A DNA stretch of 64,000 nt from a bacterium (GCA_965216315.1 CBDCFN010000016.1:1632001-1696000); one strand, 5' to 3'; positions 7,957-40,422 are shown, counted from the first letter of the stretch. Notes: generated by a model from the letters alone, not told the origin. Program-made: numbers and translations.

Positions 7957-7981
7957 TTCGGACTCAAGGGGTAAAAGTTGC
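7957..7981 (-). promoter_or_regulatory. Sigma-28-like promoter, copy 1 (giant carboxylase)
   Basis: Minus strand GCAAC-TTTTACCCCTTGAGT-CCGAA (CAAC-N15-CCGAW), about 70 nt upstream of ATG 7887. Confidence 0.7.
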
Positions 7982-8019
7982 TAATTTTTTCGAAATCGAA
8001 ACGGCGAAGATAGTAAGTT

Positions 8020-8032
8020 TAACTAATTGATA
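8020..8032 (-). promoter_or_regulatory. IHF-consensus site
   Basis: TATCAATTAGTTA matches WATCARNNNNTTR exactly. Confidence 0.5.
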
Positions 8033-8049
8033 TAATTAAATTTATGCTG

Positions 8050-9882
8050 CTATTCGGTCACGATGTTGTCGAGGCGGTCGAGGGCCTTGATGACAACCTC
8101 CCGCAAGATCGCATTGTGGGCCTTATAGGGGGCCCGCGGGACGCTCCGCAAGAACACGATGCGGGCGGGTGCCAATCCCTTGACCCCGGGCCCGGCAACA
8201 TTTTCCATATGTCTGAGCAGCTCAACCTCGGTATACCGAGCCCCCCGGGCGAGCACAACGGCAGCGACAACCATTTCTCCCAGTTTCTTGTCCGGGATTC
8301 CAACGACGTGACAATCCTGAATTCCCGACATCCCACGCATATGATTTTCAATCGTCCGTGGAAAGACGGCCTGGCCATTGGTCACGATCTTTTCGATCGA
8401 GCGCCCAAGTACCGTAAGGAAGCCGTCCTCATCCAACTTACCGAAGTCATCGCCCTCACGGAATCGCCCATCGGTCAGTGCGTTCTTGACGTAGATCGTC
8501 CCGACTTGACCCGGACCCAGGATCGTACCGCCCTGGTCGCGAATCTGAATCTCAACTCCCGGTGCGGGGCGCCCCACGGTCTCTTTATGGGCGAGTAATT
8601 GATCCGGTCTAAGGACGGTTACCAAACCAAATTCCGTCGTCGCATAATTTTCCCAGATGATGGGCCCGAACACGCCGACAGCAAGCTCCTTCAATGAAGG
8701 ATGAAACGGAGCCGCTCCGACGTAAATGGCCCGCAACGAATCAAGTTTATAATCGTGGTGAGAATCGGCAACAAACATACACAAGCTTTTCAACCAATGC
8801 GGCGAGGTCCAAAAGTTGGTGAGTTGATGGTTATCAATCAAATCTAAAGTCGCTTCCGGATCAAAGGCGAGGCTCGGGGTTTCATCGAGCATCACCATTG
8901 CCCCGCGATTGAGATGTCCCTTCGCCCAGGAGTGCGCACCGCCATGATAGAGTTGGCCCACAACGAGGTTTTTGTCTCTTTCAGTAATTTGAAACAGGCG
9001 GTTCGCCTTGCGTCCGACGTTCGCATCGCGCTTAACACGGACTAGCTTGGGCTCACCGGTCGTTCCCGAACTCATCATCACGGGACCCGGATACTCAGGC
9101 GCAACCATATCCGCACTCGCGGCTGGCGGTCGTTTAAATTCTTTAATGATACTTCGGTAGTGAAGAACGTTCGGATACTTGTTATCAATGTCGACCACAA
9201 TCGTTCCCATCGCCTCAAGCAAGGGAAGATAGAGTTCGATATGCAGTAAACTTTCATGATCGAGAAACAACACGCGATACGGCTGAGCCCGTAGTTTCTC
9301 CATGATCTGATCGCGTGATAGATAAGAATGAAAATTGGTGTACGCCACACCGGCACGCTTGGCTCCAATATTGATCGAGAAATGTTCAACGCGATTCCGA
9401 CTGAAGAAGATGGCGACTTGTTGATCATCCGAGTCACGACAACCCGCAATGAAGCGACCGAGGATATCCGCATGGGCGTCCAACGTCCCATAGGTTAACC
9501 CTTCCGTGCCTTGTCGCACTGCCACACGCTGTCCCCAACTAAAGGCATTTTGCGCAATCGGATCGGTTCGATTGATCGGACCCGGCGTCATCCGACTCGT
9601 CAGGTCGCTCAATACACCACGAATTTGCTCGCGGGTCGGTATGCTGAGCAGCGTCGGCAACGTATAACTCCCTAAAAAGGGATGGACTATCTGGGACTCG
9701 TGACCGCGCCAGTAGAGATCCTGGACGTCTTCCCAGATTTCTCCGTCGGTGAGCTGATCATCCGAGTGCATGTGCCGTTCGATTTGCGCAAGCTCCTCCG
9801 TAAAGGCCGCGACGTTGAAAGTCCCGCGGCTGGCACAGAGCATAGGGGCAACCATGAGCTGGGTCGCCAAATTGGATGACAT
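8050..9882 (-). CDS. AMP-binding (ANL superfamily) acyl-CoA synthetase-like protein with N-terminal extension
   Basis: MSSGTTGEPK P-loop, YATTEFG, GIPDKKLGE; start moved to ATG 9882 because the promoter motif overlaps the 9915 start. Confidence 0.8.
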   Translation of the reverse strand: MSSNLATQLMVAPMLCASRGTFNVAAFTEELAQIERHMHSDDQLTDGEIWEDVQDLYWRGHESQIVHPFLGSYTLPTLLSIPTREQIRGVLSDLTSRMTPGPINRTDPIAQNAFSWGQRVAVRQGTEGLTYGTLDAHADILGRFIAGCRDSDDQQVAIFFSRNRVEHFSINIGAKRAGVAYTNFHSYLSRDQIMEKLRAQPYRVLFLDHESLLHIELYLPLLEAMGTIVVDIDNKYPNVLHYRSIIKEFKRPPAASADMVAPEYPGPVMMSSGTTGEPKLVRVKRDANVGRKANRLFQITERDKNLVVGQLYHGGAHSWAKGHLNRGAMVMLDETPSLAFDPEATLDLIDNHQLTNFWTSPHWLKSLCMFVADSHHDYKLDSLRAIYVGAAPFHPSLKELAVGVFGPIIWENYATTEFGLVTVLRPDQLLAHKETVGRPAPGVEIQIRDQGGTILGPGQVGTIYVKNALTDGRFREGDDFGKLDEDGFLTVLGRSIEKIVTNGQAVFPRTIENHMRGMSGIQDCHVVGIPDKKLGEMVVAAVVLARGARYTEVELLRHMENVAGPGVKGLAPARIVFLRSVPRAPYKAHNAILREVVIKALDRLDNIVTE

Positions 9883-9906
9883 GAGACCTGTAAACACAGT
9901 GGGCTC

Positions 9907-9931
9907 ATCGCACATTTTCGGAAAAAGTTGT
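9907..9931 (-). promoter_or_regulatory. Sigma-28-like promoter, copy 2
   Basis: Minus strand ACAAC-TTTTTCCGAAAATGT-GCGAT (one mismatch in the -10 element). Confidence 0.55.
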
Positions 9932-10032
9932 TTATTTCTTAGGGGTTATCTTCGAATCCTTGCGAAAGAATCGCCGGTTGAGGCTTCGCGATAGATCTGC
10001 TAAGGACTCGATTCACATAAGGAGCTAAGTTC

Positions 10033-10413
10033 ATGAAAAAGATATTCATTCTCGGTGCCGGCCTCATTCTCGCGACCGGCCTCTCTGCTTGCCAGAAATC
10101 AACGGATCCAGCCAAATCAGAGCCGACTTCCACCCTAGAATCAACGAGTTCGGGAGACAAAATCTCCGGCGAGGCCTTCAGCGGTGATTATGTCACGGTC
10201 CTGTGCCGCAAATACAAAGAATGTGGCATCAATGCCTTTAAAACGGATAAGGATTGTCACAATCGTATCAAGGCGGTTCTCGACAAGGATGCCAAATGGC
10301 AAGAGCTCAACTTGGACAAGTCAGCGCTAGCCACGTGCTTAAAGGACTTTAAGGACTTCTCGTGCGACAATTTTAAGGCAGGCAAGGCCCCGGATAGCTG
10401 TCAAAAGCTCTAG
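10033..10413 (+). CDS. Cys-rich lipoprotein of unknown function
   Basis: SD AAGGAG, lipobox LSAC, six Cys in the C-terminal domain. Confidence 0.75.
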   Translation: MKKIFILGAGLILATGLSACQKSTDPAKSEPTSTLESTSSGDKISGEAFSGDYVTVLCRKYKECGINAFKTDKDCHNRIKAVLDKDAKWQELNLDKSALATCLKDFKDFSCDNFKAGKAPDSCQKL

Positions 10414-10495
10414 GATATTGTTTTTCCTTGCGTATTTTGGGGTTAACTCGATATAAGGCCCCCGCCTTTTTCATTAATTTATAAGGAGATCTTCA

Positions 10496-12502
10496 ATGGA
10501 AGCGTGGATTCAATGGGCACCTATAATCGGTGTCATCGGGTTGGTGACGGCAGGACTACTCTACGTAGGACTCAAACGTCACTCGGTAGGAACAGAACGA
10601 ATGGAAGAACTGGCGGAGCAGATTCATAAAGGCGCCATGGTCTTTCTCAAACGAGAGTACATGATCTTGGTGTTCTTTATTATACTCGTCGGGCTGCTCT
10701 TGGGCTTTTATATATCGCGGAACACAGGATTCGCCTTCTTAGCGGGCGCCATCTCCTCAATGCTGGCCGGTTTTATCGGCATGAAAGCCGCCACGCGAGC
10801 CAATGTCAGGACGACCGCCGCAGCCAACCAGGACGGGACAGCCTCCGCCCTCAACGTGGCTTTCTTTGGCGGTTCGGTCATGGGACTCTCAGTTGCCGCT
10901 CTGGGCCTGATTGGATTAGGCGTCTCTTTTTACTTGTACCGACTTGGTTATATCCAGGCCGCCGAAATCAATGGTTTTGCCATGGGCGCCTCTTCAATCG
11001 CCCTCTTCGCCCGCGTCGGTGGCGGGATTTATACCAAAGCCGCTGATGTCGGTGCCGACCTCGTCGGTAAGGTTGAAGCCGGCATCCCCGAAGATGATCC
11101 ACGCAACCCGGCTACCATTGCCGATAACGTCGGTGATAATGTCGGCGATATCGCCGGCATGGGCGCAGATATCTTTGAATCTTACGTCGGCTCGGTTATT
11201 GCAGCGATTGCCATTGCCTCTACCGGCGCCGCCTACGCATCATTAAAACTGGCCTATATGACCTTCCCCTTAGCCCTCGTCATGATCGGCTTGGTCGCTT
11301 CGATCATCGGTGTCCTCTCTATGAAGGTTCTTCGAGGATTGGGACCGGAAGCTGCGATCCGCTATGTGCCCTTAGCGCCACTCATAGGTTTCCTAGTTGG
11401 TGCTTACTTCCTCGCGGACGCGTTGGGGATTCCTCAGGGAACGGTCGTCGCCGTTGTCTCCGGTTCCGTTGCGGGAGCGTTGATCGGTCTCGTCACTGAG
11501 TACTACACCTCGGCAAAACCGATTCGTGACATCGCTGCGGCCTCTCAAACAGGTCCGGCCACGACCATCATTTCCGGAATTGGCGTAGGCATGAAGAGTT
11601 GCGTGCTCCCGATTTTGATAATCTGTATTGCGATTTACTTAGGTTACACCTACGCGGGCCTCTACGGAATTGCCATTTCGGCTGTGGGCATGTTGGCCAC
11701 AGTTGGTGTCACGATGTCAGTCGATGCTTACGGTCCAATTGCTGATAATGCAGGTGGTATTTCAGAAATGGCCGAGCTTGGCCCCGAAACACGTAAAATT
11801 ACGGACGGTCTTGACGCTCTCGGCAACACGACTGCTGCCATCGGTAAAGGCTTTGCCATTGGCTCTGCGGCACTGACCGCCTTGGCCCTGTTCTCTGCCT
11901 ACGCTTCAGCCGTTGGACTGAGCACTTCGGGAATTAACATCATGGACCCGCGCGTCGTCATCGGCCTCATGGTCGGCGGTGTTCTGCCCTTCTTGATTGC
12001 CGCGCTGACCATGGATTCAGTCGGTAAAGCCGCCTATGCAATGGTTGAAGAAGTCCGGCGCCAGTTCAAAGAGATCAAAGGACTCATGGAAGGAAAGGCC
12101 AAACCCGACACGGAACGTTGTGTCGACATTTCCACCAGTGCCGCACTGAAGGAAATGATTCTCCCTGGCATCAGCGCAATCCTCGGACCTATCTTGGTCG
12201 GTGTCCTCCTCGGCAAAGAAGCCGTTGGGGGCTTACTCGCCGGCGCAACGGTTACCGGTGTATTGCTTGCCCTGTTCATGGCGAATTCAGGCGGTGCCTG
12301 GGATAATGCCAAGAAGTACATCGAAGGCGGTGCTCATGGCGGTAAAGGATCCGATCCGCATAAAGCCGCCGTCGTTGGTGACACCGTCGGTGATCCTTTT
12401 AAGGATACCAGCGGACCTTCAATGAATATCCTGATCAAGTTGATGAGTGTTGTCAGTCTCGTGTTGGCACCACTCTTTGCAACCCTGACACCGTTGCTGT
12501 AA
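10496..12502 (+). CDS. hppA: Membrane-bound cation-translocating pyrophosphatase, K+-dependent type
   Basis: [35 protein letters not shown] (Ala variant marks K+-dependent enzymes), [14 protein letters not shown]. Confidence 0.95.
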
Positions 12503-12509
12503 TTTTATT

Positions 12510-12537: not shown

Positions 12538-13835
12538 TTCCGTTTACGGTGAAAACTGTACAAAACAACCCCAACCGCCAACAAGCCTGCCGCTCTTAGA
12601 TAAGCCCCGGTCGAAAACTGCGCAGCCATATAGAGCGTGATAACGGTGCCAAGAATGGGAACCGGCAAGGGTACCTTAAAGAATGATCTGGCCGGGTTGT
12701 CCGGGTAGACCTTTTTAACTTTTACGGCAATCAGCGACACATTCACCAGACAAAATGCCAACAAGATAATGACATTCGTTGACTCGGCAAGAACCTTTAA
12801 AAACCCAGTGAGTGCAAAAGCCATGGCGAGCAGACCCGCAACCAACACCCCCGTCGTTGGTGTTTGGCGACGCGCATGAACGCGGCCAAAGCCATCGGGA
12901 ATCCAACCCGAACGCGCCATCCCGTACAAGATACGCGAACACATAATCATATTAAAGAGTGCGCTGTTAAAGACCGCAAACAGGGCAATGCCACTGAGCC
13001 ACTTGGTGGAGAAAAACGGTAGGAGTCGTTCAGCCACGATCGCGAGCGGCACCTCCGATCTCGCTAACTCAATAGGCGAAGCCACTGAAACAACCGTCAA
13101 TCCGACACCAATATAAACAATAGTTGAAATGATCACCGCTAAGATAATGGCACGAGGAATCGTTCGTTCAGGTTGAATGACCTCTTCGGCAACGTTACAA
13201 ATATCCTCAAACCCTATATACGCATAGAAGGCCAAGGCCGCCCCGGTAACAATGAGGCCGCTCGGATTGCCATGCAAAGTGCCAGTACTGGTGTCAAAGT
13301 AATCAACACTTCCCCACTTGGGGAGGGCATAGATTACAAGGACGATCAAGGCCCCTACCGAAACTACCGTGCAAAGAACATTCACCCAGGTCGCTTCTCG
13401 AATGCCGCGGTGATTCAATCCCGTAATAAGCGATAAGAAAATCAGAATAATCGACCAACGTGGGAGATCGATAAATTGCGCGAAGTACCCTGCAAAGCCA
13501 TGACTTAAGGCTGCTGTCGATGCAATGCCACTGGCGAGGATTAAGAAGCCAACGATAAACGAAAGGGTCCCACTCTTAAAGGCGCGATTTGCGTAAACCG
13601 CCTCCCCTGCCGATTTCGGATAGCGACTCGCCAGTTCCGCGTAGGAAAGGCCGGTTGGCAACGCCGCACAGGCCGAGGCCACGAAAACAATCCACACCGC
13701 ATTACCGGCGACCCCTGCAATCTTACCAACCAACACGTAAATGCCCGCACCGATGATAACACCGACTCCGTATAATGTAAGGGTTGTCGTCTTCAGATGA
13801 CGCCGCAGGCTTGGGGCTTGTATCTCCCGACTCAT
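12534..13835 (-). CDS. APC-family amino acid permease
   Basis: GVIIGAGIY, SYAELASRYP, FYAYIGFE, about 12 hydrophobic segments. Confidence 0.9.
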   Translation of the reverse strand: MSREIQAPSLRRHLKTTTLTLYGVGVIIGAGIYVLVGKIAGVAGNAVWIVFVASACAALPTGLSYAELASRYPKSAGEAVYANRAFKSGTLSFIVGFLILASGIASTAALSHGFAGYFAQFIDLPRWSIILIFLSLITGLNHRGIREATWVNVLCTVVSVGALIVLVIYALPKWGSVDYFDTSTGTLHGNPSGLIVTGAALAFYAYIGFEDICNVAEEVIQPERTIPRAIILAVIISTIVYIGVGLTVVSVASPIELARSEVPLAIVAERLLPFFSTKWLSGIALFAVFNSALFNMIMCSRILYGMARSGWIPDGFGRVHARRQTPTTGVLVAGLLAMAFALTGFLKVLAESTNVIILLAFCLVNVSLIAVKVKKVYPDNPARSFFKVPLPVPILGTVITLYMAAQFSTGAYLRAAGLLAVGVVLYSFHRKRK

Positions 13836-23273: not shown

Positions 23274-25070
23274 CTAACCGAGTAAATCACCGGATGAAAA
23301 CTCGAAATCCGCTTCTGGAATATAAAGCGTAAACACACTTCCCTCATCAAGCGCACTTTCCACGGTAATGAATCCCTTCGATTCATTCACGATACTTTGA
23401 ACAATAGCGAGACCAAAACCGCGACGATTTTCTTCGAGAGTCGGATCATTGTGGCTGGATACTCTGAACTCGAAGATATTGAGCAGCTTATCCTGCTCAA
23501 TTCCATGGCCGGTGTCACTAAAGTCTATCCGGACATACCGCCCCGCCCTAATATTGTGTCTGTTAAGCCGATGCTTAGGCATATTTCGCATCGCCTCGCG
23601 GTCAAGTTCAAGGCTCTGCACGCTTATTTCCAAGTATCGCTCACTTGACTCCCTCATCGCATCAATCGCATTCTGAACCAGAGCTCTTATCGCCTCTCTA
23701 AAACGACTCGGATCGACTTCGACCATCGGAGCCGGTGAGTTAACCTTGACCTTCATCTGCACACGATCATCCGTGAGCAAATCTTGCAGCGCCTCTTCAG
23801 AAATCAATTCAGCAACCTGAAAGCGATAAGCGTCACCCGCGCCGCTACTCATGCTACGCAGGCTTTCTATTTTACGAGCGGTCTCTTCAACGGTTTCTTG
23901 AGGGAGAAGCAACTGTGGAATCAGCATATCAATGATGGCTATGAGCAGTGCTTTTGCCGTCGTTGCCCTTTCCATGCGCTCTTGAGGTGCTGCTTGGGCA
24001 AACCGTGCAATTCTCTGGGCTGCCGCATTGAGCGCCACAGCAAGCTCGTCTTCACCAACTTTTATCACTAAATCTCGAAGCATTTGGAGCAAACGCCGCG
24101 GTTTTTGGACCTGCATAGAAATTTTCTGGTTTGAATTCTGGACATCATGGGCAATTCCCGCGGCGACCTCTCCAAGTATTTGCAAGACGCGCCACCTCGC
24201 GCTCCGCTTCTTCTCTTTTAATTTGTTCAGTCAAATCATCGTATGACCGACGCATGGCTGCCATCGCTTTTTTGCTTTTACTCCGGTCAATACAAAAATA
24301 GATCCCGAAATTATTGCCTGTTATCATGCGCGCGTAGAGATCCACCGAAACATAAGAACCATCACTCTCTAAGCAACCGTATATCGTTCACGTAAACTCC
24401 AGATGTCATGATATCACTGAGCACGGATCCCAAAGCGACCTAAGTCCTCGGGGTGAATATTTTTCATAAAATCTCTGTCGGTTAGCTCTGCCTCCGTGAA
24501 GCCTGAGATCCGTTCGTTAGCTTGGTTGCACATCATCAGGCCGACACCCTCGGGCCCAATGACAAAGGCACCCGCCGCGACACTCAGGCTTTCAATCATA
24601 GCGCGAAGTGGCAATACGATCTCATCATGGGTCTCAACTTCAATGATTTCAGGTTCGACCGGCAATTGGTTGACGTCGACGCGTATCATCGAAGGCTGAG
24701 AGGGCCGCCGTTTAAAGCTTCGACTCGTCGGCGGCGTTGTGGAATGCAGTGGACTCACACCCTGTCCAATCAAATCCGTTAATTCTTGGAATTTGGTGTA
24801 ATCAAAGTTGTCTGCAAGGGTCGACGCGGCCGCCCCAAGGGCCATAAAAACTCTTTGCCTTAATTCCGGAGTTTCCTCCGTCTGAGCCGCACTGGCTAAG
24901 GCCGGCGCCAGAATCTGAACCGGTTCGGCCAACAAGACGGCACTGCTCAAACGATCCCAATTGTTTCGCAAACCCTCTGTCGCCTGGCTAATCGATTGCC
25001 CCGCCTGCAACCCCGTCGTGGCTTGGAGCAGATTACTGACCAGTAAATTGTATGTCGAAATGTGAGACAC
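23274..25070 (-). pseudogene. PAS-domain sensor histidine kinase with N-terminal extension, interrupted by three +1 frameshifts
   Basis: PAS (CNQANERISGFT..IHPEDL), H-box AAGIAHDVQN, N-box NAIDAM, DTGHGI, GFGLAIV; breaks near 24433, 24367 and 24186. Confidence 0.75.
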
Positions 25071-25099
25071 CGCTATTTACCCTGACCCTTGCGGATCTC

Positions 25100-25124
25100 A
25101 TCGGAGCAAGCTCGAAAATGTTGT
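25100..25124 (-). promoter_or_regulatory. Sigma-28-like promoter, copy 3
   Basis: Minus strand ACAAC-ATTTTCGAGCTTGCT-CCGAT, about 30 nt upstream of GTG 25070. Confidence 0.65.
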
Positions 25125-25316
25125 GGGGTATTTTTGCCTATTTTTTCAGCTACTTAAGAGAGATATCTCGACTCGCAGGCCCACTTTCGCTCCTGCCCCC
25201 AGCTGATTAAAATCATTATATTTTTTAGACTTATCCACAGATCGTTCTCAAATTAATCTGCAACAAAAACGGTTAAATATTTGTCCTTTGATTCAGATAG
25301 CGCTAGTCAGGGGCCC

Positions 25317-26366
25317 ATGTTAGCCCCACCGCGCATTAACGGACTTGCAACGGCCGCCCCCGCAACAAAAGTTCCGCAGCCAGATGCGAAAGCGTATTTC
25401 ACCGAACTTTTTCGGAAGGGACTTGCGGACGTCGACCGCCTGAGTTCCGTCTTCGACAACGGCCGCGTCGATAACCGTTACATTGCAGAATCGTTAGAAT
25501 GGATGGGAAGTCAGCACAGCTTTGAAGAAAAGAATCGGCTCGTCATTGATCACTCGGTCGAAGTGGCCGCTGAAGCCGCCGAGAAGGCCTTTGCTGATGC
25601 CGGTATCCATGCCAAGGATATCGAAGCCTTAGTGGTCGTTTCATCCTCGTCAGTCGCCACACCGAGTCTTGATGCCTTACTAATCGAACGATTGGGTCTT
25701 TCGCGGCATACGGTGCGTCAACCGATGTTCGGGTTAGGCTGTGCTGGCGGCGTTGCCGGCATTTCTCATGCGGCGGATCTGGCACGCAGCATGCCGGGAC
25801 GCAATGTCCTCTTCATCGCCGTAGAAATGAACACCCTCACCTTTCAATGCAACGACATGTCGAAGACCAACTTTATCAGTTCGAGTCTCTTTGGCGATGG
25901 GGCTGCTGCCGTCGTGCTTAATACCTGGGGAGACGGTCCCAAATTTATCGGTCGCCACAATACTTTACTGCCAAAATCCGAATGGGTCATGGGCTGGGAG
26001 GTCATCGAAACAGGCCTCAAGGTCCGCATCTCTACCGATATTCCTTCGGTCGTCGATATCCAACTGCCACAGCTCTTTGAAGATGCCTGTGATCGCTGGG
26101 GCGTGTCCCGACAACAAATCCGTCACTTTATCTTGCATCCTGGCGGCGCCAGAGTACTGGATGCCTATGTTAACACCCTGGACCTCAGTGAAGAAAATCT
26201 TAAACATTCGAGTGACGTGCTTCGGGAATTTGGCAACATGTCGAGCCCAACCGTCTTATTTGTACTCGATCGATTCCTAAGAGAACCTCCTGAAGCTGGT
26301 GAGTATGGTATCTTGCTGGGCTTTGGCCCCGGCTTCAGCGCTGATCAAGCCCTCCTCCAATGGTAA
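25317..26366 (+). CDS. Type III polyketide synthase (SrsA/BpsA-like)
   Basis: Catalytic triad motifs GLGCAGG, HPGG, GNMSSPT; LFGDGAAA; GFGPG. Confidence 0.92.
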   Translation: MLAPPRINGLATAAPATKVPQPDAKAYFTELFRKGLADVDRLSSVFDNGRVDNRYIAESLEWMGSQHSFEEKNRLVIDHSVEVAAEAAEKAFADAGIHAKDIEALVVVSSSSVATPSLDALLIERLGLSRHTVRQPMFGLGCAGGVAGISHAADLARSMPGRNVLFIAVEMNTLTFQCNDMSKTNFISSSLFGDGAAAVVLNTWGDGPKFIGRHNTLLPKSEWVMGWEVIETGLKVRISTDIPSVVDIQLPQLFEDACDRWGVSRQQIRHFILHPGGARVLDAYVNTLDLSEENLKHSSDVLREFGNMSSPTVLFVLDRFLREPPEAGEYGILLGFGPGFSADQALLQW

Positions 26367-26875
26367 GCCTATTCTTTTGGATCTTCATTGCCGTTGTTAC
26401 GGTACAACGCTTATTTGAATTATGGTTGGCCCAACGAAATCAGAAAATTGCCCTCGCCGCAGGTGGAGTGGAACACGGTACCAGTCACTACCCTCTTATC
26501 GTCGCCCTTCATGCCCTCTGGCTGGTGGCCTGGATCATTGAAAGCTTGGCTCGCGGACCCTATCTCAATAGTTACTGGATTATTTTTCTCGTCTTAGTAA
26601 TGCTTGCACAAGCTCTGCGTTATTGGGCGATCAGCTCGCTTGGGAGCGCCTGGAATACCCGCATCATCGTCATCCCTGACGGCGAACGGGTCAAACGAGG
26701 CCCCTATCACTTTGTTTCACACCCTAATTACGTCGCCGTCACCATTGAACTCGTCTGCCTCCCGATGATCTTTGGGGCCTGGATCACAGCCATCGTAGCG
26801 ACTATCATTAATGCCATTGTCCTGCTTGGAATTCGTATTCCTGCGGAAAATCGCGCGCTAAAAAGTCTTCAATAA
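26360..26875 (+). CDS. ICMT-family methyltransferase (SrsB/BpsB-like)
   Basis: QRLFEL, LRYWAI..LG..WNTRI, GPY..HPNY; overlaps the PKS stop. Confidence 0.9.
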   Translation: MVSLFFWIFIAVVTVQRLFELWLAQRNQKIALAAGGVEHGTSHYPLIVALHALWLVAWIIESLARGPYLNSYWIIFLVLVMLAQALRYWAISSLGSAWNTRIIVIPDGERVKRGPYHFVSHPNYVAVTIELVCLPMIFGAWITAIVATIINAIVLLGIRIPAENRALKSLQ

Positions 26876-27203: not shown

Positions 27204-27626
27204 ATGAGACACGTAACCCCCGGCATATTAATGGCCGTCTGCTTAAGCTTAATGATCGGATCTACAGCGTTGGGCCATAAAGATGGCGACGGTGACCGCA
27301 AGTCAAGGTGGACGGAAAAACTGGATCTGACGGAGGCGCAGCAAGCCGAGTTGGATAAGATTAAAGAAAGTCATGGCACTAAGATGAAGGAAAAGCGTAA
27401 GGCCATGAAAGAAGCCAAACGAAAACTCGGCGAGGCGCTTAAGACTGATGCGTCGGAAGACATGCTTTGGGCCCAGTTTAAACAGCTTCAGCAACTGAAG
27501 AGCGACTTTGGCACAGCGCGTTTCGAAAAGATCCTGGCAATCCGTAAGATCTTAACACCGGAACAACGTGCCAAATTCAATGCGATGAAACGACATCATC
27601 GTCGGCACAAGAAACACAAGGATTAA
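27204..27626 (+). CDS. Spy/CpxP-family periplasmic protein
   Basis: Signal peptide, LDLTEAQ and ILTPEQ (LTxxQ) motifs. Confidence 0.85.
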   Translation: MRHVTPGILMAVCLSLMIGSTALGHKDGDGDRKSRWTEKLDLTEAQQAELDKIKESHGTKMKEKRKAMKEAKRKLGEALKTDASEDMLWAQFKQLQQLKSDFGTARFEKILAIRKILTPEQRAKFNAMKRHHRRHKKHKD

Positions 27627-28144
27627 TGACTGAAGCCAAAGCAGTCTATCTGACGACGGATCATGCTGGAGACGGATTGACGGCCCTTTATCAGGAATAC
27701 CAGGGCCTCGTCCGCCAGCTGATCTTTAATATCTGCGGCGCCGAGCATTTGGATGACCTGGTTCAAGAAGCGTGGCTGCGGGCGTGGAAAGGTCTGCCTA
27801 AATTCCGGCAACAAGCCAGCCACAAAACGTGGATCTATCGCATTGCAGTCAATACCGCCCTTGATCATTGCCGACGGCTCAAACCAGCACTCGAGTTGTT
27901 TGAGGAGCCGGCTATGAACGAAGGAACGGAGCAACGGGTAGCCAACCAGGAGCTGGTACAAAGAGCCCTACAAAAACTATCACCCGAGCATCGGAGCGTC
28001 ATGGTCTTGTCGTGCTACGAAGACCTCTCGGTTCGTGAGATCGCAGCAGTGACTGAATCAGCCGAGGGAACGGTTAAATCGCGCCTCCATTATGCACGTC
28101 AGCAATTAAAGAAATTTTTGAGCGATAATGGAGCTAACTTATGA
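27626..28144 (+). CDS. ECF RNA polymerase sigma factor
   Basis: DDLVQEAW, TWIYRIAVN, EIA..GTVKSRLHYAR. Confidence 0.92.
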   Translation: MTEAKAVYLTTDHAGDGLTALYQEYQGLVRQLIFNICGAEHLDDLVQEAWLRAWKGLPKFRQQASHKTWIYRIAVNTALDHCRRLKPALELFEEPAMNEGTEQRVANQELVQRALQKLSPEHRSVMVLSCYEDLSVREIAAVTESAEGTVKSRLHYARQQLKKFLSDNGANL

Positions 28145-33672: not shown

Positions 33673-33680
33673 GAGAAAAC

Positions 33681-34358: not shown

Positions 34359-34383
34359 AAAACTTTTTAACTGATTGGCAGAT
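34359..34383 (+). promoter_or_regulatory. Sigma-28-like promoter, copy 4
   Basis: AAAAC-TTTTTAACTGATTGG-CAGAT(AA), 11 nt before ATG 34395. Confidence 0.5.
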
Positions 34384-34394
34384 AACATAGGCTC

Positions 34395-35603
34395 ATGAGT
34401 GCATTCTACGGCCTGACATCAGCTGCAAATCCTTTGCTCGCTTCAGCAACTACGCAAGTAGTAGTCATGAACCAATACGATCGTAATGTCGTTCTCTCAG
34501 AGGCGAGTCGATCGGGCTGTACGGATGTATTGTTGCTAACGAAACCGCGTACGCGTGTTTCGCTGCTGGACCCCGAGCGTAATGCGCGTGGCTTCCGCAT
34601 CTTTTACCCGGATTGGGGTTCGATGGGTTATACGTCAACCTTGGCTGAGGCGAGAGATATCGATCCGATCAGTACGTCAGACCCTAAAAGAGCGTTTGTC
34701 CAACTCGCTATTTCAGCCCGTCATGGTAAATTGCCCCAAGGCAATCTCATTCCCATACCCTATGGCAGTGTCATGCAGATCGGAGCACTATCCGTGGCCA
34801 CTCTCTTGTCTGACCGACTCCGCTCTTCACGAATCAACTATATTCCACCCTGGATCCGTGACGTGGATATTCTGCTGCTTAGCGGAACTCTGACTCACCC
34901 TGAAGCTTTGAGTGATTTTATCAAAAAACAGCGAGGGCCAGGACCTCTGTTATCATTTTATCCCCGCAATCAAGACTATACGGCCGACCGCAAGGAGTGG
35001 AATACCTGGCCGTCGCACATGATAGGTCTCGGACCAAGCACTCAGTATCACGCCCTCGCCAGCTATCAAACAAAACCGCAGCATCCCGGGAAGCCATTAA
35101 AAGATCGCCTCGACTTTTCCATTCACTCATCACCTATGCGTGATCCGTCAAAGTGGGCTAATACAACCAAGACACACAAAAAAGAACACGAAATCGTCAA
35201 TAAAGAAAAACGCTTTCAACTGACGCTAACGGTTCGCTATAAACGTGAAATAAGTGACCGATTAATGAATTTTTTCTCAATCGACACTGATACATCCGTT
35301 GCACGGGCGCGGGCTGATTATGCCTCCAATCAAACAGGACGCCTGGTTGCAAAATACTTGGCTTTTCTTGAAAGAAATCCCGGCCATAGCCAAACCGAAA
35401 GGAGTGCGTATTTAGAAGGTCTCTACGATGACATGCACTCATCAGCCAGAGCCGTCTGGCAAAGTCCGGCAGCTACGCACGACACAGAAATTCTTCGAAC
35501 TGTTGATCGGAAGCAGTTTCCACGTGACTGGGTCCAGGCTTTTGCACTCTATCTCGAATTATGGTTCTATGAAAATACCAACCACGCCGGTCCCTACCGC
35601 TAA
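34395..35603 (+). CDS. Hypothetical protein (no family recognised)
   Basis: 402-aa ORF filling the intergenic space. Confidence 0.65.
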   Translation: MSAFYGLTSAANPLLASATTQVVVMNQYDRNVVLSEASRSGCTDVLLLTKPRTRVSLLDPERNARGFRIFYPDWGSMGYTSTLAEARDIDPISTSDPKRAFVQLAISARHGKLPQGNLIPIPYGSVMQIGALSVATLLSDRLRSSRINYIPPWIRDVDILLLSGTLTHPEALSDFIKKQRGPGPLLSFYPRNQDYTADRKEWNTWPSHMIGLGPSTQYHALASYQTKPQHPGKPLKDRLDFSIHSSPMRDPSKWANTTKTHKKEHEIVNKEKRFQLTLTVRYKREISDRLMNFFSIDTDTSVARARADYASNQTGRLVAKYLAFLERNPGHSQTERSAYLEGLYDDMHSSARAVWQSPAATHDTEILRTVDRKQFPRDWVQAFALYLELWFYENTNHAGPYR

Positions 35604-35648: not shown

Positions 35649-36848
35649 ATGGCCCCTATCCGACTCGTTATAAAACGCATGACTCACGAACCCTTTCGGC
35701 TCTTTTTTCCTTTAGGCGTTCTAGCTGCTCTCATTGCCGCTCTTTACTGGCCCGGGCTTACCTACCAAATGGGCTTCACACGTTACCCCTCACAATTTCA
35801 TATTCTCATGATGATCTTTGGATTCATGTGGGCCTTTATCATCGGTTTCCTGACAACCGCGGTCCCGCAATTGACTCAAACGAAAGATCTTGCCGCTTAC
35901 GAATTATCCCTTCTGTTGGCTCTCTATCTCAGTGCCATTATCGGGCTTTTTCTTCAGGCCTATCTCTTCACTCAAGCCAGTTTTTTTGTCACGCTACTCT
36001 ATCTGATTATGACTTTAGCTAGACGCTTCGCTACTCGCCAACGCAATGTACCACCGACATTTATTTATCTGCCGTTTGGGCTATTATCCGCGCTGATTGC
36101 AACAGCCATTACTATTGGACAAGGATTGGAGTTGATTCCCTATACTGACGAACTGACACGATTGGCACGCAACTTACTCTATCAAGGTATGATCCTTTTT
36201 CTGCTAATCGGCATCGGCGGTTTTCTGATCCGCTCCATTCTCGGCTGGGCCCCCGCGCTCCCCGAAAAGGAATCCGATCAATTACCCCACATCTCACCAA
36301 CGGCTTTGGCTAAAAATATTCATTTAGGCGCGGCTTTGGCCGTGTTTGCCAGCTTCTTGCTGGAAGGCGTTGATCTCACCTATGCACAAGCCCTGCGCGC
36401 CGTTGTCGTTACGCTCATCCTTATCGCGCAAGTCAAGATCCATCGCATCCCGATCAGTGGTAAATTGACGAGTACAACGCTACTCATCGCCCTCTGGCTA
36501 TTACTCTTAGGACTGTGGGGTCAGGTCTTTGCCTCACCTCAATACTCGATTGCATTTCGTCATTTCTGCTTTATCGGCGGTTTTGCCTTGAGCGTCTTTG
36601 CCGTCGCCACGCGCGTGATTTTCAGCCACTGCGGCTATTCCGAACTATTGCAAAAGCGCTATGCACCATTCTCAATCGCGGTCACGATCATGGGCATCGG
36701 CCTTGTAACACGGTTTTCCGCCACATTGGTACCGAGCACTTTTTTCACTCATCTTTCCTATTCAAGCTTTATCTGGTGTCTGGGGGTTCTTATCTGGAGC
36801 AGTGCTATCCTGACTAAATCAGTTCAATCGACCCTTTCCCGTTCTTAA
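35649..36848 (+). CDS. nnrS: NnrS family protein
   Basis: EPFRLFFPLG, H..MMIFGF..GFLTTAVP, VATRVIFSHCG. Confidence 0.85.
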   Translation: MAPIRLVIKRMTHEPFRLFFPLGVLAALIAALYWPGLTYQMGFTRYPSQFHILMMIFGFMWAFIIGFLTTAVPQLTQTKDLAAYELSLLLALYLSAIIGLFLQAYLFTQASFFVTLLYLIMTLARRFATRQRNVPPTFIYLPFGLLSALIATAITIGQGLELIPYTDELTRLARNLLYQGMILFLLIGIGGFLIRSILGWAPALPEKESDQLPHISPTALAKNIHLGAALAVFASFLLEGVDLTYAQALRAVVVTLILIAQVKIHRIPISGKLTSTTLLIALWLLLLGLWGQVFASPQYSIAFRHFCFIGGFALSVFAVATRVIFSHCGYSELLQKRYAPFSIAVTIMGIGLVTRFSATLVPSTFFTHLSYSSFIWCLGVLIWSSAILTKSVQSTLSRS

Positions 36849-36880
36849 GATAGCACTGAGCTCTCTGAAACATCGACTTT

Positions 36881-37336
36881 TTAGAGCACTGAAAATGTTC
36901 GTGCCATGATCGATAAAGGACCCATAAACATGATTTGGGGTATCGCTAGGAGAATAATACCAAGCTTCACATTTTCTTCGACATCAACCACACCGACTAG
37001 CACCCTATTTGAATTCGTACACTGTGGAGGGATTTCATAGGTGACTATCTGAACCGGTCGACCACCCGCTCGATTCTTTTCCCATGAAGTCACCGGAATC
37101 AGTTGATTGCCGCGACCACAAATTTTTTGATAATAGATATGCCCGCTAGTATCGACGGTCACGACATGGGAATTGCCATAAGCATCCTTGCCACGAGCCT
37201 CCAAGCGCCCATCGCTATGCCCCTGTTCAGCGGAGCAAAATTGCAGCGCACTGTTGACCGTATCCTGTAGCTTTGAGCTGATTGTCGTATTGTTGCCCAA
37301 ACGAGCCGCGAGTTGCGGACAAGAATTTGCACCCAT
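36881..37336 (-). CDS. Hypothetical protein with C-terminal hydrophobic segment
   Basis: SD AAGGAGG, 151 aa. Confidence 0.65.
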   Translation of the reverse strand: MGANSCPQLAARLGNNTTISSKLQDTVNSALQFCSAEQGHSDGRLEARGKDAYGNSHVVTVDTSGHIYYQKICGRGNQLIPVTSWEKNRAGGRPVQIVTYEIPPQCTNSNRVLVGVVDVEENVKLGIILLAIPQIMFMGPLSIMARTFSVL

Positions 37337-37370
37337 GAGAGCACCTCCTTAATCAACGCAACACTGATTT

Positions 37371-37395
37371 TTCGGCCGGGCCACTGAAAAGTTGC
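37371..37395 (-). promoter_or_regulatory. Sigma-28-like promoter, copy 5
   Basis: Minus strand GCAAC-TTTTCAGTGGCCCGG-CCGAA. Confidence 0.7.
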
Positions 37396-37427
37396 GAAAA
37401 TTCGCAAATTTTCGAAAAAATATGACA

Positions 37428-37440
37428 TAAGCTACTGATT
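37428..37440 (-). promoter_or_regulatory. IHF-consensus site between divergent promoters
   Basis: AATCAGTAGCTTA matches WATCARNNNNTTR. Confidence 0.5.
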
Positions 37441-37458
37441 TGATTGGATTTTCTACAA

Positions 37459-37483
37459 GCAACCTTTGCGAGCTCACACCGAT
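37459..37483 (+). promoter_or_regulatory. Sigma-28-like promoter, copy 6
   Basis: GCAAC-CTTTGCGAGCTCACA-CCGAT. Confidence 0.7.
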
Positions 37484-37491
37484 GAATGGAC

Positions 37492-38421
37492 ATGCTCGCG
37501 ATGCAGGTTTTGAATCTAGGGGTAAGTGGGGTCCTGACGGCCTACAGCGGACAAGCCCCGCACCGGCAAGCCATTCCTCAACCGAATCCGTCTGCAGGGC
37601 GCCCCCTTCACCATTTTCGAGCGATGTGTCGCTTTGAACCCGCACAGCCCTACCTTAACACACTGCGAACACAAAATTTCGCTCCAAAGGTTTTCAGACT
37701 TGAAGGTCGGGAGGAATCCTATGTGCTCCATCAATGGCCCCTGACCGCCATTCGGTCAATAGAACGTTTCGCCAACGATCCGGAGCTTATTGGCGACCGA
37801 GCTGTATTTGTCGGGCATTCAGCCGGGGGCTTTCCCCTCTATATACTTGCCTGCATTGCCAAAGGAGCCCGCCTCGAAGATATTCGCAATGCACTCCCGC
37901 CGATCGACGCGATCAACGCACTCGATGCGATTTCTCCGTCGCAATATGCAACACTTGCGAAGTCACTGAGTACGGCCCTCTTCATCAGCATAGGAACTCC
38001 TTATAATGGCATCCATTTGACCGACTGGTTTCGTCCTCTACATGACCGAGTCGTTGCAGCTTTTGATCCCTTGCTAATAAATAGTTTGCGCAAAGATTTT
38101 GTCGATACCGTATATCGCCGTATCGGCCTCCGCCCGGAGCAAGTTATCCACGGACAGATGATCAGTAATGCGGCGCCCATCAAATTAAGTCGAAATCCGC
38201 GCACTCTTCCAATCGAAATCATCATGCAAGGCGGTATGCGTGCTGTTGCGCTTATTACTGAATACAAAATATATGATGGCATTGCCCCGTGGGCCGCGGT
38301 CTACGTCAGCGGGATTCCCGAACATGAGATCGTCCAGTTCGATCATCTGCGCCTCGTCGAAACAGCAAAACCTGCTGAACATCTGATGGGATTGATCGAC
38401 CGCAGTGACAGCCACCGCTGA
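37492..38421 (+). CDS. Alpha/beta hydrolase (lipase/esterase-like), paralogue A
   Basis: FVGHSAGG nucleophile elbow, SIGTPYNG, DGIAP, HL; start aligned with paralogue B. Confidence 0.75.
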   Translation: MLAMQVLNLGVSGVLTAYSGQAPHRQAIPQPNPSAGRPLHHFRAMCRFEPAQPYLNTLRTQNFAPKVFRLEGREESYVLHQWPLTAIRSIERFANDPELIGDRAVFVGHSAGGFPLYILACIAKGARLEDIRNALPPIDAINALDAISPSQYATLAKSLSTALFISIGTPYNGIHLTDWFRPLHDRVVAAFDPLLINSLRKDFVDTVYRRIGLRPEQVIHGQMISNAAPIKLSRNPRTLPIEIIMQGGMRAVALITEYKIYDGIAPWAAVYVSGIPEHEIVQFDHLRLVETAKPAEHLMGLIDRSDSHR

Positions 38422-38467
38422 TTTTTTTCACTTTCCTTCCAGCAAAATAATTCGCTACTTAACCTCC

Positions 38468-39217
38468 ATGAATTCCGGCATAACTTTTGGAATGACTTTC
38501 GGCTATCTCACGACGGTCGCACTGATCGCGGCAGCAGGCCTGACTTCGGCGCTATCCGCCGTGATCGGCATGGGCGGCGGCATGATCCTCCTCGCTATCA
38601 TGCTGCTATTCATGCCGGTTGAGGTCGCGATTCCCATTCACGCCGCCGTTCAACTCATCAGTAATGGCACGCGCACCTTTGTCTATTTAAAGCACGTGCA
38701 GTGGAAGGTCTGGGCGCTTTTTTGCGGACCCGCTGTCATCGGCATCTTGATGGGAAAAGAGATTTTTCTCGCATTAGACCGCGATTGGTTACGGATCGGA
38801 ATGGCCCTGTTCATCCTGATCACGACCTATCTCCCTAAATCGAAGAAAGGAAATCCCTGGCCCTTGTGGCCCTTTGCCATCGCCGGGGCGATCGCTGGGA
38901 CCCTCGGGATGTTGGTTGGCGCGACAGGACCTATAATCGCCCCCTTTTTTCTCCATGCCCAATTATTAAAAGAGAAGCTAATCGCAACCAAGGCCGTGTG
39001 TCAGACGACCATCCACATCCTTAAAATCGTCGCCTTCGGAACGATGGGCTTTGCATTCGGCGAGTTGAGCTGGCTGATCGTAGTACTCGGAGTGGCTGTT
39101 ATAGTCGGTACGTTTCTGGGAAAGAAATTTTTGCAACGTATCTCCGAACAAACCTTTGTCTATCTGGTTAAGGCGGTCCTCACCGTCATAGCCGTCAAGC
39201 TCATCGTCTATCCCTGA
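38468..39217 (+). CDS. TauE/SafE family membrane transporter
   Basis: GMGGGMILL, GATGP, GTFLGKK, about 8 TM segments. Confidence 0.85.
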   Translation: MNSGITFGMTFGYLTTVALIAAAGLTSALSAVIGMGGGMILLAIMLLFMPVEVAIPIHAAVQLISNGTRTFVYLKHVQWKVWALFCGPAVIGILMGKEIFLALDRDWLRIGMALFILITTYLPKSKKGNPWPLWPFAIAGAIAGTLGMLVGATGPIIAPFFLHAQLLKEKLIATKAVCQTTIHILKIVAFGTMGFAFGELSWLIVVLGVAVIVGTFLGKKFLQRISEQTFVYLVKAVLTVIAVKLIVYP

Positions 39218-39238
39218 TCAGCCTCGCCCGCTTAACAC

Positions 39239-39263
39239 ACAACCTTCTCGCGGTCTCACCGAT
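39239..39263 (+). promoter_or_regulatory. Sigma-28-like promoter, copy 7
   Basis: ACAAC-CTTCTCGCGGTCTCA-CCGAT, 9 nt before ATG 39273. Confidence 0.7.
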
Positions 39264-39272
39264 AGGAACGGC

Positions 39273-40214
39273 ATGCTGGTGGCGCATATGCTCAATCTGG
39301 GCGTAAGGGGGCTCTTTGGGCTCTATTCCGCTCGCGCGGCCCATCGTCAGGCAGCGCCACTCGCGGATCCGATTGATGGGCGCTCCCTCCATCACTTTCG
39401 GGCCATGTGCCATCTGGAACCGGCTGAACCCTATCTCAATACTCTTCGATCGAATGGCTTCACGCCCCATGTCTTTCGGCTGGAAGGGAAAGAAGAAAAG
39501 TTCGTCCTCGATCAATGGCCCCTGACCAGTGTGCGCGCCATCGAGCGCTTTGCAAAGAACCCTGAATTAATCGGGGAAAATCCCATCTTTGTCGGTCATT
39601 CCGTCGGTGGTTTTACGGCTTATCTCTTGGGATGCATCGCGCAAGGAGTTGCGCTTGCAGATATTCACAGAGCGATTCCGGAGATCAGTGCCCTCTCCGC
39701 CTTGGGCGGAATCAGCGCTGATCAATACCGTGATCTGCAAGCGGCTCTCAGTACAGCCCTCTTTTTCAGTATTGGCACGCCCCACAATGGAATCTACCTC
39801 AGACGCTTCTTTCGCCCCTTTCATGACAAGATTATCGCACGCATTGATCCTCTTTTCATCAATGGCCTGCGCAGAGAACTCGTCCAAAGCGTTTATGAAC
39901 AAACCGGCCTAAAACCTGAGGCGGTAATGCATGGCCAAATGCTCAGCAAGACCTCCAGCTGGAATCTAAGCTGGAAACCGTGGGCATTCCCCTTTGAGTT
40001 CATGATGCAGCTGAATCTGCGCCTCTTTGCGCGTATTGCCGATTGCTCGGTCTACGACGGCGTGGCCCCCTGGTATTCCATCTACGTCGAAGACATTCCC
40101 GAACACGAAATTGTCGAACTCAACCACCTACGCATGGTGGAAACGCCGGAAGGCGGACAGCACCTCGTCAATCTCATTCAGAGAGCTGAAGTCAGTAGGA
40201 GTCCCTCCTCATAA
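39273..40214 (+). CDS. Alpha/beta hydrolase (lipase/esterase-like), paralogue B
   Basis: FVGHSVGG, SIGTPHNG, DGVAP, HL; colinear with 37492..38421. Confidence 0.75.
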   Translation: MLVAHMLNLGVRGLFGLYSARAAHRQAAPLADPIDGRSLHHFRAMCHLEPAEPYLNTLRSNGFTPHVFRLEGKEEKFVLDQWPLTSVRAIERFAKNPELIGENPIFVGHSVGGFTAYLLGCIAQGVALADIHRAIPEISALSALGGISADQYRDLQAALSTALFFSIGTPHNGIYLRRFFRPFHDKIIARIDPLFINGLRRELVQSVYEQTGLKPEAVMHGQMLSKTSSWNLSWKPWAFPFEFMMQLNLRLFARIADCSVYDGVAPWYSIYVEDIPEHEIVELNHLRMVETPEGGQHLVNLIQRAEVSRSPSS

Positions 40215-40253
40215 ACTCAGTTCGGACGACATGTCCGCAAACTATCGTATTCA

Positions 40254-40333
40254 TATTTATAAATTATATTGAATTTATAAATAGCCGCTGAAATTAATTT
40301 ATAAAATTAATCAATAATTTCAATTATTTATAA
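40254..40333. repeat. AT-rich block with a 12-bp inverted repeat and four ATTTATAA copies
   Basis: TATTTATAAATT-N6-AATTTATAAATA; ATTTATAA at 40255, 40273, 40297, 40326. Confidence 0.55.
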
Positions 40334-40396
40334 TTTTTTTATCAATGATAATCTATACTTCTGTATACATATTATTATACATTTTAGAATTTATTC

Positions 40397-40422
40397 GAAA
40401 CTTCCCGCAAGCGACCACCGAT
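40397..40422 (+). promoter_or_regulatory. Sigma-28-like promoter, copy 8
   Basis: GAAAC-N16-CCGAT(AA), spacer one base longer than the others. Confidence 0.5.

Follow-up and report, generated by a model that had tools for sequence, protein, structure and literature searches.

The window studied here (the whole stretch of 64,000 nucleotides analysed, GCA_965216315.1 CBDCFN010000016.1:1632001-1696000) comes from an uncultured lineage, the UBA10199 / 'Deltaproteobacteria' group of metagenome-assembled genomes (MAGs) in a mostly flagellum-less phylum, and contains eight sites that resemble sigma-28 promoters with an altered -35 box. The original prediction, made from this window, was that a variant sigma-28-like promoter read by an alternative sigma factor precedes a set of scattered, unusual genes; the Bdellovibrio setting that it suggested does not apply, the organism not being a Bdellovibrio. 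The exact pattern CAAC-N15-CCGAW occurs seven times in the window compared with 1.58 matches expected (standard deviation 1.23) from 100 dinucleotide-preserving shuffles, none of which reached seven. A rough figure of about one chance match per window had been given before, and the observation that the pattern is over-represented holds. All five exact sites first reported were recovered, at 7957-7980 (minus strand), 25100-25123 (minus), 37371-37394 (minus), 37460-37483 (plus) and 39240-39263 (plus); the positions 37459 and 39239 given earlier for the last two are one base before the CAAC. Three near matches at 9930 (minus), 34360 (plus) and 40398 (plus) also proved real. On a matrix derived from the whole genome the eight sites score 17.5-25.3 bits, one of them with a 16-nucleotide (nt) spacer, and all eight face a downstream open reading frame (ORF), as had been claimed. 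The remaining exact matches, at 13731 and 17633 (both plus strand), were set aside as chance occurrences because they lie within genes and score less than 12 bits on the genome matrix.

Predicted promoters and their genes in the window

We numbered the sites as predicted promoters 1 to 8 and measured the distance from the T of CCGAT to the start codon. Promoter 1 (7955-7981, minus strand; GCAACTTTT-N10-TCCGAACA, an exact match of 20.3 bits) is followed after 70 nt by the ATG of a gene encoding a carboxylase of 2588 amino acids (aa) (121-7887, minus strand). Promoter 2 (9905-9931, minus strand; ACAACTTTT-N10-TGCGATGA, a near match of 22.9 bits) lies before a gene for an AMP-binding, acyl-CoA synthetase-like enzyme that ends at 8050. 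The first ATG of this ORF (9915) falls within the promoter spacer, and the true start is probably a GTG at 9897, 10 nt past the T, or an ATG at 9882, 25 nt past it. Promoter 3 (25098-25124, minus strand; ACAACATTT-N10-TCCGATGA, exact, 24.1 bits) is 30 nt from the GTG of a 218-aa gene (24414-25070, minus strand) whose product matches no Pfam family and has a weak PAS match. Promoter 4 (34359-34385, plus strand; AAAACTTTT-N10-GCAGATAA, a near match of 17.5 bits with AAAAC as its -35 box) has an ATG 12 nt downstream that begins a Pfam-less gene of 402 aa (34395-35603, plus strand), with an NnrS-family gene after it.

The other four predicted promoters lie close together. Promoter 5 (37369-37395, minus strand; GCAACTTTT-N10-GCCGAAAA, exact, 25.3 bits) is separated by 35 nt from the ATG of a Pfam-less gene of 151 aa (36881-37336, minus strand). 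Promoter 6 (37459-37485, plus strand; GCAACCTTT-N10-ACCGATGA, exact, 23.8 bits) has ATGs 3 and 9 nt past the T, and the gene behind it, for a 311-aa alpha/beta-hydrolase paralogue, probably has a leaderless start at the ATG at 37492; it ends at 38421, overlapping a TauE exporter gene (38405-39217). Promoter 7 (39239-39265, plus strand; ACAACCTTC-N10-ACCGATAG, exact, 20.8 bits) has its ATG exactly 10 nt past the T, at the predicted +1, and precedes a gene for a 313-aa alpha/beta-hydrolase-like protein (39273-40214, plus strand). Promoter 8 (40397-40424, plus strand; GAAACTTCC-N11-ACCGATAA, that is, GAAAC-N16-CCGATAA) reaches 19.2 bits when one column is added to the matrix, and lies 52 nt before a 79-aa Pfam-less gene (40474-40713, plus strand) that has AAGGAGG as a strong ribosome site. 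The genes behind the eight sites thus encode the giant carboxylase, the AMP-binding enzyme, two paralogous hydrolases and four Pfam-less proteins.

Several other features accompany these genes. The carboxylase is a single chain with biotin carboxylase, BCCP, ACC_central and carboxyltransferase domains and, at the C-terminus, a biotin protein ligase domain (BPL_LplA_LipB and BPL_C); by these domain matches it is a eukaryote-like acetyl-CoA carboxylase fused with its own biotinylating enzyme. Within its gene are antisense matrix matches at 819, 1746 and 4158 (plus strand) of 15.0 (N17), 14.8 and 18.0 bits (N16), which may be chance matches or antisense promoters. Divergent from promoter 3 (25281-26875, plus strand) are genes for a type III polyketide synthase, chalcone synthase-like, and an ICMT-family methyltransferase; the giant carboxylase in the same window would supply malonyl-CoA. 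The two hydrolase-like paralogues (55% identity) flank the TauE/SafE exporter gene in the interval 37486-40214 (plus strand), each with its own promoter of this type. Further on (40806-42604, minus strand), two CDGSH iron-sulfur domains are fused to a glutamate-synthase FMN domain in a 510-aa protein, followed by an 83-aa ORF with CDGSH-like cysteine/histidine spacing.

A promoter class across the genome

The host assembly comprises 2.96 Mb in 16 contigs and is 98.3% complete. We called 2511 genes with our own crude script based on ORFs and codon usage, and we counted a site as near a start when it lay between -60 and +250 nt from the longest-ORF start. A scan of spacer lengths over the whole genome gave 178 matches for N15, 110 of them near starts, compared with 56-108 matches and 5-26 near starts for each of the other lengths from N9 to N22. 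N15 was the sole strong peak, with a minor tail at N16 and N17. When all 1024 5-mers were placed before N15-CCGAT, GCAAC gave 56 matches with 46 near starts and ACAAC gave 31 with 23, whereas the canonical TAAAG gave 10 with none.

Beginning from the original pattern, we obtained a matrix by iteration with the core positions relaxed. It converged on c-GCAAC-TTTT, ten free bases and G-CCGATAA (cGCAACTTTT-N10-GCCGATAA), with a spacer of fixed length and free sequence. The base frequencies of the -10 box among 238 sites were G 0.53, C 0.54, C 0.95, G 0.98, A 0.99, T 0.72, A 0.66 and A 0.72. At 16 bits or more the matrix found 236 sites in the genome, 198 of them near starts; the reversed matrix found 11 with 1 near a start, as did a matrix with the spacer shortened by one, and matrices with the spacer lengthened by one or two found 48 with 33 and 42 with 24. 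The genome-wide enrichment upstream of starts that had been predicted was therefore seen (198/236 compared with 1/11 for the reversed matrix). A search anchored on the -10 box alone gave a signal swamped by background. From these counts we estimate that the class comprises roughly 250 promoters, preceding about a tenth of the genes.

The motif is not the housekeeping promoter because it is missing where that promoter would be expected: in the 150 nt before each of the 45 tRNA genes no site exceeded 11.5 bits, and the best matrix score upstream of 16S was -0.1 bits. A test of the E. coli-type TTGAC-N17-TA..AT spacing gave weak signals and did not define a housekeeping consensus; TTGAC-like boxes were seen by eye upstream of tRNA genes. 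The motif had not been noticed before the housekeeping genes first inspected by eye; the predicted regulon does include housekeeping-type genes (UvrA, RibBA, PanD, DEAD-box helicases, PFK). As a separate observation, groups of tRNA genes have three recurring G-rich elements of 50-60 nt directly upstream, one of them common to tRNA-His, Tyr, Val, Lys, Ala and two Ser.

The two boxes agree with sigma-28 promoters except at -35. In the Pseudomonas aeruginosa sigma-28 promoter the -35 element TCTAAAG lies at -36 to -30 and the -10 element GCCGATAA at -15 to -8 (PMC12784957). The motif contains the same -10 octamer, and its box-to-box distance (5-mer, 15 nt, CCGAT) equals that of the P. aeruginosa fliC promoter given there (PMC12784957), whereas the canonical TAAA(G) is replaced by GCAAC or ACAAC. 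This bears out the original description of FliA geometry with a different -35 box. With the 5-mer at -34 to -30, N15 and CCGAT placed as in P. aeruginosa, +1 would fall ten nt past the T (PMC12784957).

The distances to start codons suggest that many of the messages are leaderless. Taking the first in-frame start after the -10 box, we found it 8-13 nt past the T of CCGAT at 80 of 211 sites, with a mode of 10 nt (24 sites). ATG made up 70 of the 80 starts in this class compared with 89 of 131 elsewhere, and a Shine-Dalgarno-like word was present in 24 of the 80 compared with 70 of 113 genes with leaders of at least 20 nt. The nearly leaderless mRNAs proposed for the window are statistically supported because start codons pile up at the predicted +1, and these figures suggest that mRNAs of the 8-13-nt class are leaderless. 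In the window, promoter 7 (ATG at 10 nt) has the predicted leaderless layout, promoters 6 (9 nt) and 4 (12 nt) probably have it, and promoter 2 (GTG at 10 nt) perhaps does.

To describe the genes of the class we used a set of 203 distinct promoter-proximal genes outside the window and the sigma locus (described below), of which 176 with a site of at least 17.5 bits were scanned against Pfam. No family matched at E<=1e-5 in 118 of the 176 (63/101 + 55/75), compared with 26 of 80 control genes without a site (Fisher's exact p = 3.5e-7). The controls were the first 80 of 148 genes drawn at random from 339 eligible genes of the same loci and the window; the contrast is conservative because they neighbour the regulon genes. 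Enrichment before orphan genes, which had been anticipated, was thus observed. Among the regulon genes with recognizable products are cell-wall enzymes (a phage-type lysozyme, two SLT transglycosylases, an M23 peptidase and a LysM protein), degradative enzymes (an S8 protease, a patatin lipase and an endonuclease/phosphatase) and LamG lipoproteins. Signalling is represented by Ser/Thr kinases, two cyclase-STAND proteins, a GGDEF protein, histidine kinases and two DUF4423 regulators; more ordinary genes include, besides the housekeeping types named above, glutamate dehydrogenase and RtcB. By a crude N-terminal heuristic, 19 of 211 regulon genes encode proteins that look Sec-exported compared with 523 of 2511 overall, so the regulon looks poor in Sec signal peptides, unlike that of Bdellovibrio. 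The densest patch lies outside the window at C16:2163562-2208403 (C16 being a contig of the host genome), where about 17 strong promoters occur in 45 kb, nearly one per gene. The proteins encoded there are almost all of 265-1288 aa and Pfam-less, with the exceptions of one FHA protein and two with thrombospondin-type repeats.

Two boxes at a set distance could also belong to a transcription-factor site or a dispersed repeat. The two DUF4423 regulators within the regulon would suit a transcription-factor site. The motif, however, is asymmetric and strictly oriented to genes, its spacer is fixed in length and free in sequence, start codons stack at one distance, and the downstream box is the sigma-28 -10 octamer. 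The flanking sequences are not conserved, which rules out a repeat element. We regard this explanation as extremely improbable.

The candidate sigma factor and the type III secretion cluster

The host genome (G000) contains five sigma-70-family genes, encoding RpoD, an RpoH-like factor, two extracytoplasmic function (ECF, group 4) factors and one FliA/WhiG-like factor, together with a sigma-54. The only FliA/WhiG-like factor is encoded at C16:350583-351407 and is 275 aa long. Its best NCBIfam matches are FliA_WhiG, WhiG and FliA, ahead of SigB/F/G, and the best related solved structures are WhiG and FliA (E 4e-24 to 4e-21). It scored 133.5 bits (133.1 in a second scan) against TIGR02479, for which the curated cut-off is 189.6. 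The recognition helix of region 4.2 reads SKSWTSR where WhiG and P. aeruginosa FliA have (S/T)ESRVSQ. All 44 orthologues from MAGs have SKSW(T/V)SR and none has the canonical (S/T)E(S/A)R(V/I)SQ form, and in a 40-sequence alignment K225, S226, W227, S229 and R230 are invariant. The original prediction had foreseen a fliA/whiG paralogue with an altered region 4.2; exactly one such factor exists in the genome, and its recognition helix is altered.

We mapped the residues of this SKSW factor to P. aeruginosa sigma-28 by structure-relative alignment with an offset of 5, which also fits D66, R97 and R101. In the P. aeruginosa factor, S224 and Q228 of the helix contact -35 bases specifically, Q228 reading -36/-35, and their mutation impairs transcription, while D66 and R97 contact the -10 and extended -10 (PMC12784957). 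In the SKSW factor S224 is kept as S and Q228 is replaced by R; the residues corresponding to D66 and R97 are kept (near-invariant D77 and invariant R108 in the alignment). Judged from sequence, a changed helix with kept -10 contacts is consistent with a promoter whose -35 box differs while its -10 box stays the same. The system is thus like canonical sigma-28 (E. coli 6PMI; P. aeruginosa, PMC12784957) in its -10 octamer, box distance and mapped D66, R97 and S224, and unlike it in having cGCAAC for TCTAAAG, R for Q228, K and W for the neighbouring E and R, and no FlgM found. FlgM (PF04316) had no match at E<=0.1 in the 98.3%-complete genome, and a divergent anti-sigma factor may exist.

The SKSW factors belong to a larger group. 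Among the query and the 150 best cluster representatives at 50% identity (151 sequences, with identity down to 32%), 130 have (K/R)-x-W-x-x-R and one has E-x-R-x-x-Q. In the 50%-identity library, factors with the SKSW helix make up 118 clusters at E<=1e-30. On these counts the SKSW type is a separate, large clade.

We conclude that the sites are likely promoters of one class read by this SKSW-type sigma-28 paralogue, to which binding is predicted. The alternative sigma factor proposed for the scattered genes is in this way supported in silico.

One of the two ECF factors, of which one is encoded in the window itself (27626-28144), could read the motif instead. The -35 boxes of ECF factors typically contain AAC ('GGAAC-TT'), and ECF factors are usually autoregulated. 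GCAAC with its run of T resembles such a box. However, the -10 box here is the full sigma-28 octamer GCCGATAA, not one of CGT type, and the geometry equals that of sigma-28. No site of at least 12 bits lies upstream of the window ECF gene or the ORF before it, the nearest being one of 12.3 bits at 28103, downstream; about 250 sites would also be very large for an ECF regulon. We therefore consider an ECF factor a very improbable reader of the motif and return to the SKSW factor.

The sigma gene is surrounded by a type III secretion cluster (C16:339170-362743). The cluster contains genes for FlhA, YscD-like FHA proteins, a YscJ-type lipoprotein, two small ORFs, the sigma factor, a 162-aa ORF, a weak FliG-like match, FliH/SctL, the ATPase, YscO/FliJ, a FliK-like protein, FliM- and FliN-like proteins, FliO, FliP, FliQ and FliR. 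The order around the sigma gene is YscJ-like, two small genes, sigma, SctI-like, FliG-like, FliH/SctL, ATPase and onward. As a whole the cluster mixes weak flagellar-like matches (FliG_C, FliM, FliO, FliK) with injectisome-like ones (YscJ, YscD-FHA, YscO). Directly after FliR are two Pfam-less genes (717 and 491 aa), each with a strong promoter of the class; the 717-aa gene has homologues in only 2 of 30 relatives. FlhB/SctU is encoded far from the cluster, at C16:805026, 450 kb away. No secretin gene lies at the locus, the two secretin matches of the genome being at 975 kb and 17 kb, and the flagellin, rod and FlgM families had no match in the whole genome. The expectation that the motif would precede late flagellar genes was accordingly not borne out, the genome having no flagellin or rod genes.

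This arrangement recurs in related MAGs. The order YscJ, sigma, small ORF, FliG-like is found at their loci, with the FliG-like gene downstream in 41 of 44. An ORF of 158-196 aa follows the sigma gene directly on its 3' side in 36 of 36 loci examined (162 aa here, L056:10408-10896) and has no Pfam or NCBIfam match; its N-terminus is variable and its C-terminus conserved, and by eye the C-terminus is like that of inner-rod (SctI-type) proteins.

In gene content the cluster agrees with the needle-less 'Myxo' type III secretion system (T3SS*), having an export gate, ATPase and sorting platform and no secretin, flagellin or rod, in a comparison that did not include a search for SctF. It resembles the Myxo T3SS* in the export gate, ATPase, sorting platform and YscJ/YscD-like rings (Abby and Rocha 2012, PMC3459982; Herrou et al. 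2025, PMC12075869). Missing from both are a secretin at the locus, flagellin and rod (PMC3459982, PMC12075869). The Myxo T3SS* is described without FliG, whereas weak FliG-, FliM-, FliO- and FliK-like matches occur here (PMC3459982, PMC12075869). A further difference is the distance of FlhB/SctU from the cluster. The word 'sigma' does not occur in the main text of either article, so neither treats a sigma factor encoded by the cluster or its promoter, and the regulation of the system goes unmentioned in both (PMC3459982, PMC12075869). In the searchable literature, with subscription papers and supplements outside the search, we found no description of a sigma factor encoded in a needle-less type III cluster or of a GCAAC-type sigma-28 promoter.

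The factor might instead be the ordinary FliA of the lineage, which, as in Chlamydia, outlasted the flagellum, and the motif its FliA promoter after drift. The best family and structure matches to FliA/WhiG fit this, as do the canonical -10 box and spacing and the label 'FliA' that automated pipelines give to orthologues. The flagellated relatives argue otherwise. Flagellin is present in only 3 of 30 relatives (G014, G022 and G029) and the SKSW factor in 30 of 30. The three flagellated genomes hold both an SKSW factor, at 129-138 bits and so below the 189.6 cut-off, and a separate canonical FliA at 215-223 bits on TIGR02479, with the helix [S/T]-E-[S/A]-R-[I/V]-S-Q. Upstream of their flagellin-family genes, AAGTTT-N11/12-CCGT occurs in three cases and the GCAAC motif, at 12 bits or above, in none. 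With a second, canonical FliA present and flagellin genes lacking GCAAC, the SKSW factor cannot simply be equated with the lineage's FliA. The predominance of (K/R)-x-W-x-x-R among the 151 nearest sequences also points to a separate clade, and we judge the drifted-FliA explanation very improbable. As an additional observation, the three flagellin-family genes of G022 and G014 (L179, L181, L182) combine the canonical AAGTTT -35 with CCGT(C/T) in place of CCGAT, which may be a second means of separating the two sigma paralogues.

Conservation across the phylum and implications

The motif and the SKSW factor are both widespread in the phylum. GCAAC-N15-CCGAT is enriched in 31 of 31 genomes from 17 families (in G014, for example, 109 matches compared with 9 for the control read backward), and the sigma factor is present in the same 31. 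All 61 genomes sampled, from 22 families, contain the stricter GCAAC-N15-CCGATAA, with 2-66 copies each compared with 0-2 for the control. Homologues, in relatives, of the window hydrolase behind promoter 7 have the motif upstream in 5 of 5 cases (25.5, 23.9, 20.0 and 17.7 bits, and 14.2 bits at N16). Among 29 orthologues of the M23 peptidase, 8 have a site of at least 14 bits and 2 a weaker one. From this mixed record we infer that regulon membership turns over between relatives, as is usual.

Under the favored explanation, RNA polymerase with the only sigma-28-family factor of the genome would read about 250 promoters. Sigma domains 2 and 3 would read the unchanged -10 box, and the region 4.2 helix, changed from (S/T)E(S/A)R(V/I)SQ to SKSW(T/A)SR, would recognise GCAAC where TAAAG otherwise stands at -34 to -30, with the spacing the same. 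Transcription would begin about 10 nt past the T of CCGAT. At more than one in three of the promoters +1 would be the A of ATG, giving a leaderless mRNA.

Several points weigh against this explanation. The sequencing runs listed as containing this DNA are four from one study, none of them recorded as RNA. The link between sigma factor and motif is correlative. The sampled genomes all hold both motif and factor and are kin, not independent, so that their number conveys breadth and not a discriminating correlation. The factor itself scores under the curated threshold for FliA/WhiG. The sigma gene has no site immediately before it (the closest strong ones are at C16:333890, 360554 and 362889), so nothing points to its regulating itself. 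The original pattern was the seed of the matrix, though it converged with relaxed core positions. Gene starts came from a crude ORF caller, and the leaderless count leans on the rule of the first in-frame start. In 19 of the 29 M23 peptidase orthologues no site of at least 8 bits lies upstream, although 2 of the 19 have less than 200 nt of upstream sequence. The carboxylase promoter offers no evidence of conservation, since no full-length orthologue of the 2588-aa protein was found in 30 relatives, where only biotin carboxylases of about 500 aa matched.

Two known systems offer comparisons. The sigma-28 of chlamydiae is kept in a non-flagellated bacterium with type III secretion and used for non-flagellar genes; it has a canonical promoter of TAAAGTTT/GCCGATAA type and controls few genes. 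The factor described here is likewise a sigma-28 without a flagellum, and differs from the chlamydial one in its -35 box and in a predicted regulon of about a tenth of the genes. In the attack phase of Bdellovibrio bacteriovorus HD100, TTAAG-N16-CCGATA was reported at 92 of 140 mapped promoters (Karunker et al. 2013, PMC3627812). Attack-phase genes there encode proteases, surface proteins and many proteins of unknown function (PMC3627812). A sigma-28-type promoter with CCGATA at -10 and a large, mostly non-flagellar programme are common to that FliA regulon and the one proposed here (PMC3627812). The Bdellovibrio promoter has TTAAG at -35 with N16 and belongs to a flagellar FliA in a flagellated cell; here, by contrast, the -35 is GCAAC, genes for flagellin and rod are missing, and the paralogue lies below the cut-off and within a type III cluster (PMC3627812). 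The Bdellovibrio regulon rests on measured expression, and the regulon here is predicted from sequence (PMC3627812). The system would thus work like the FliA regulon of Bdellovibrio and the sigma-28 of chlamydiae, yet it departs from canonical FliA in -35 box, score, helix, flagellar targets and FlgM. What is new here is a probable cognate factor put to the motif, the recognition of that factor as a paralogue with a re-coded helix, and an estimate of the size of the regulon.

Because the sigma gene lies within the secretion operon and FliA-FlgM provides a precedent, the activity of the SKSW factor may, the arrangement suggests, be coupled to the secretion machine. A broader joint reading, which as a whole we hold to be doubtful though possible, is that SKSW factors are an unrecognised third branch of sigma-28, born as the regulator of a needle-less type III machine and gated, by analogy with FliA and FlgM, by export of an inhibitor through it. 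Some 10% of the genome would then be turned on once the machine was assembled or a target cell touched, and many of the products may be substrates of the machine. If this is true, the set switched on would comprise wall hydrolases, lipases, proteases, kinases and hundreds of lineage-specific proteins, mostly without Sec signals and many of them from leaderless mRNAs. It would amount to an 'attack programme' under a secretion checkpoint throughout an uncultured phylum, and to a natural case of sigma paralogues insulated by a re-coded -35 box.

The finding would give a readable promoter code and a large predicted regulon to a candidate phylum on which hardly anything has been published and from which nothing has been cultured. 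It would also tie a sigma-28 paralogue to a needle-less type III system whose role in Myxococcus predation is under active study. Genomes that hold both canonical FliA with TAAAG and the SKSW factor with GCAAC would be a natural experiment on the avoidance of cross-talk, in which three helix residues and three promoter bases could be exchanged in the laboratory. The list of about 250 predicted promoters marks orphan genes that would be regulated together, and offers a first basis for conjecture about how these bacteria live.

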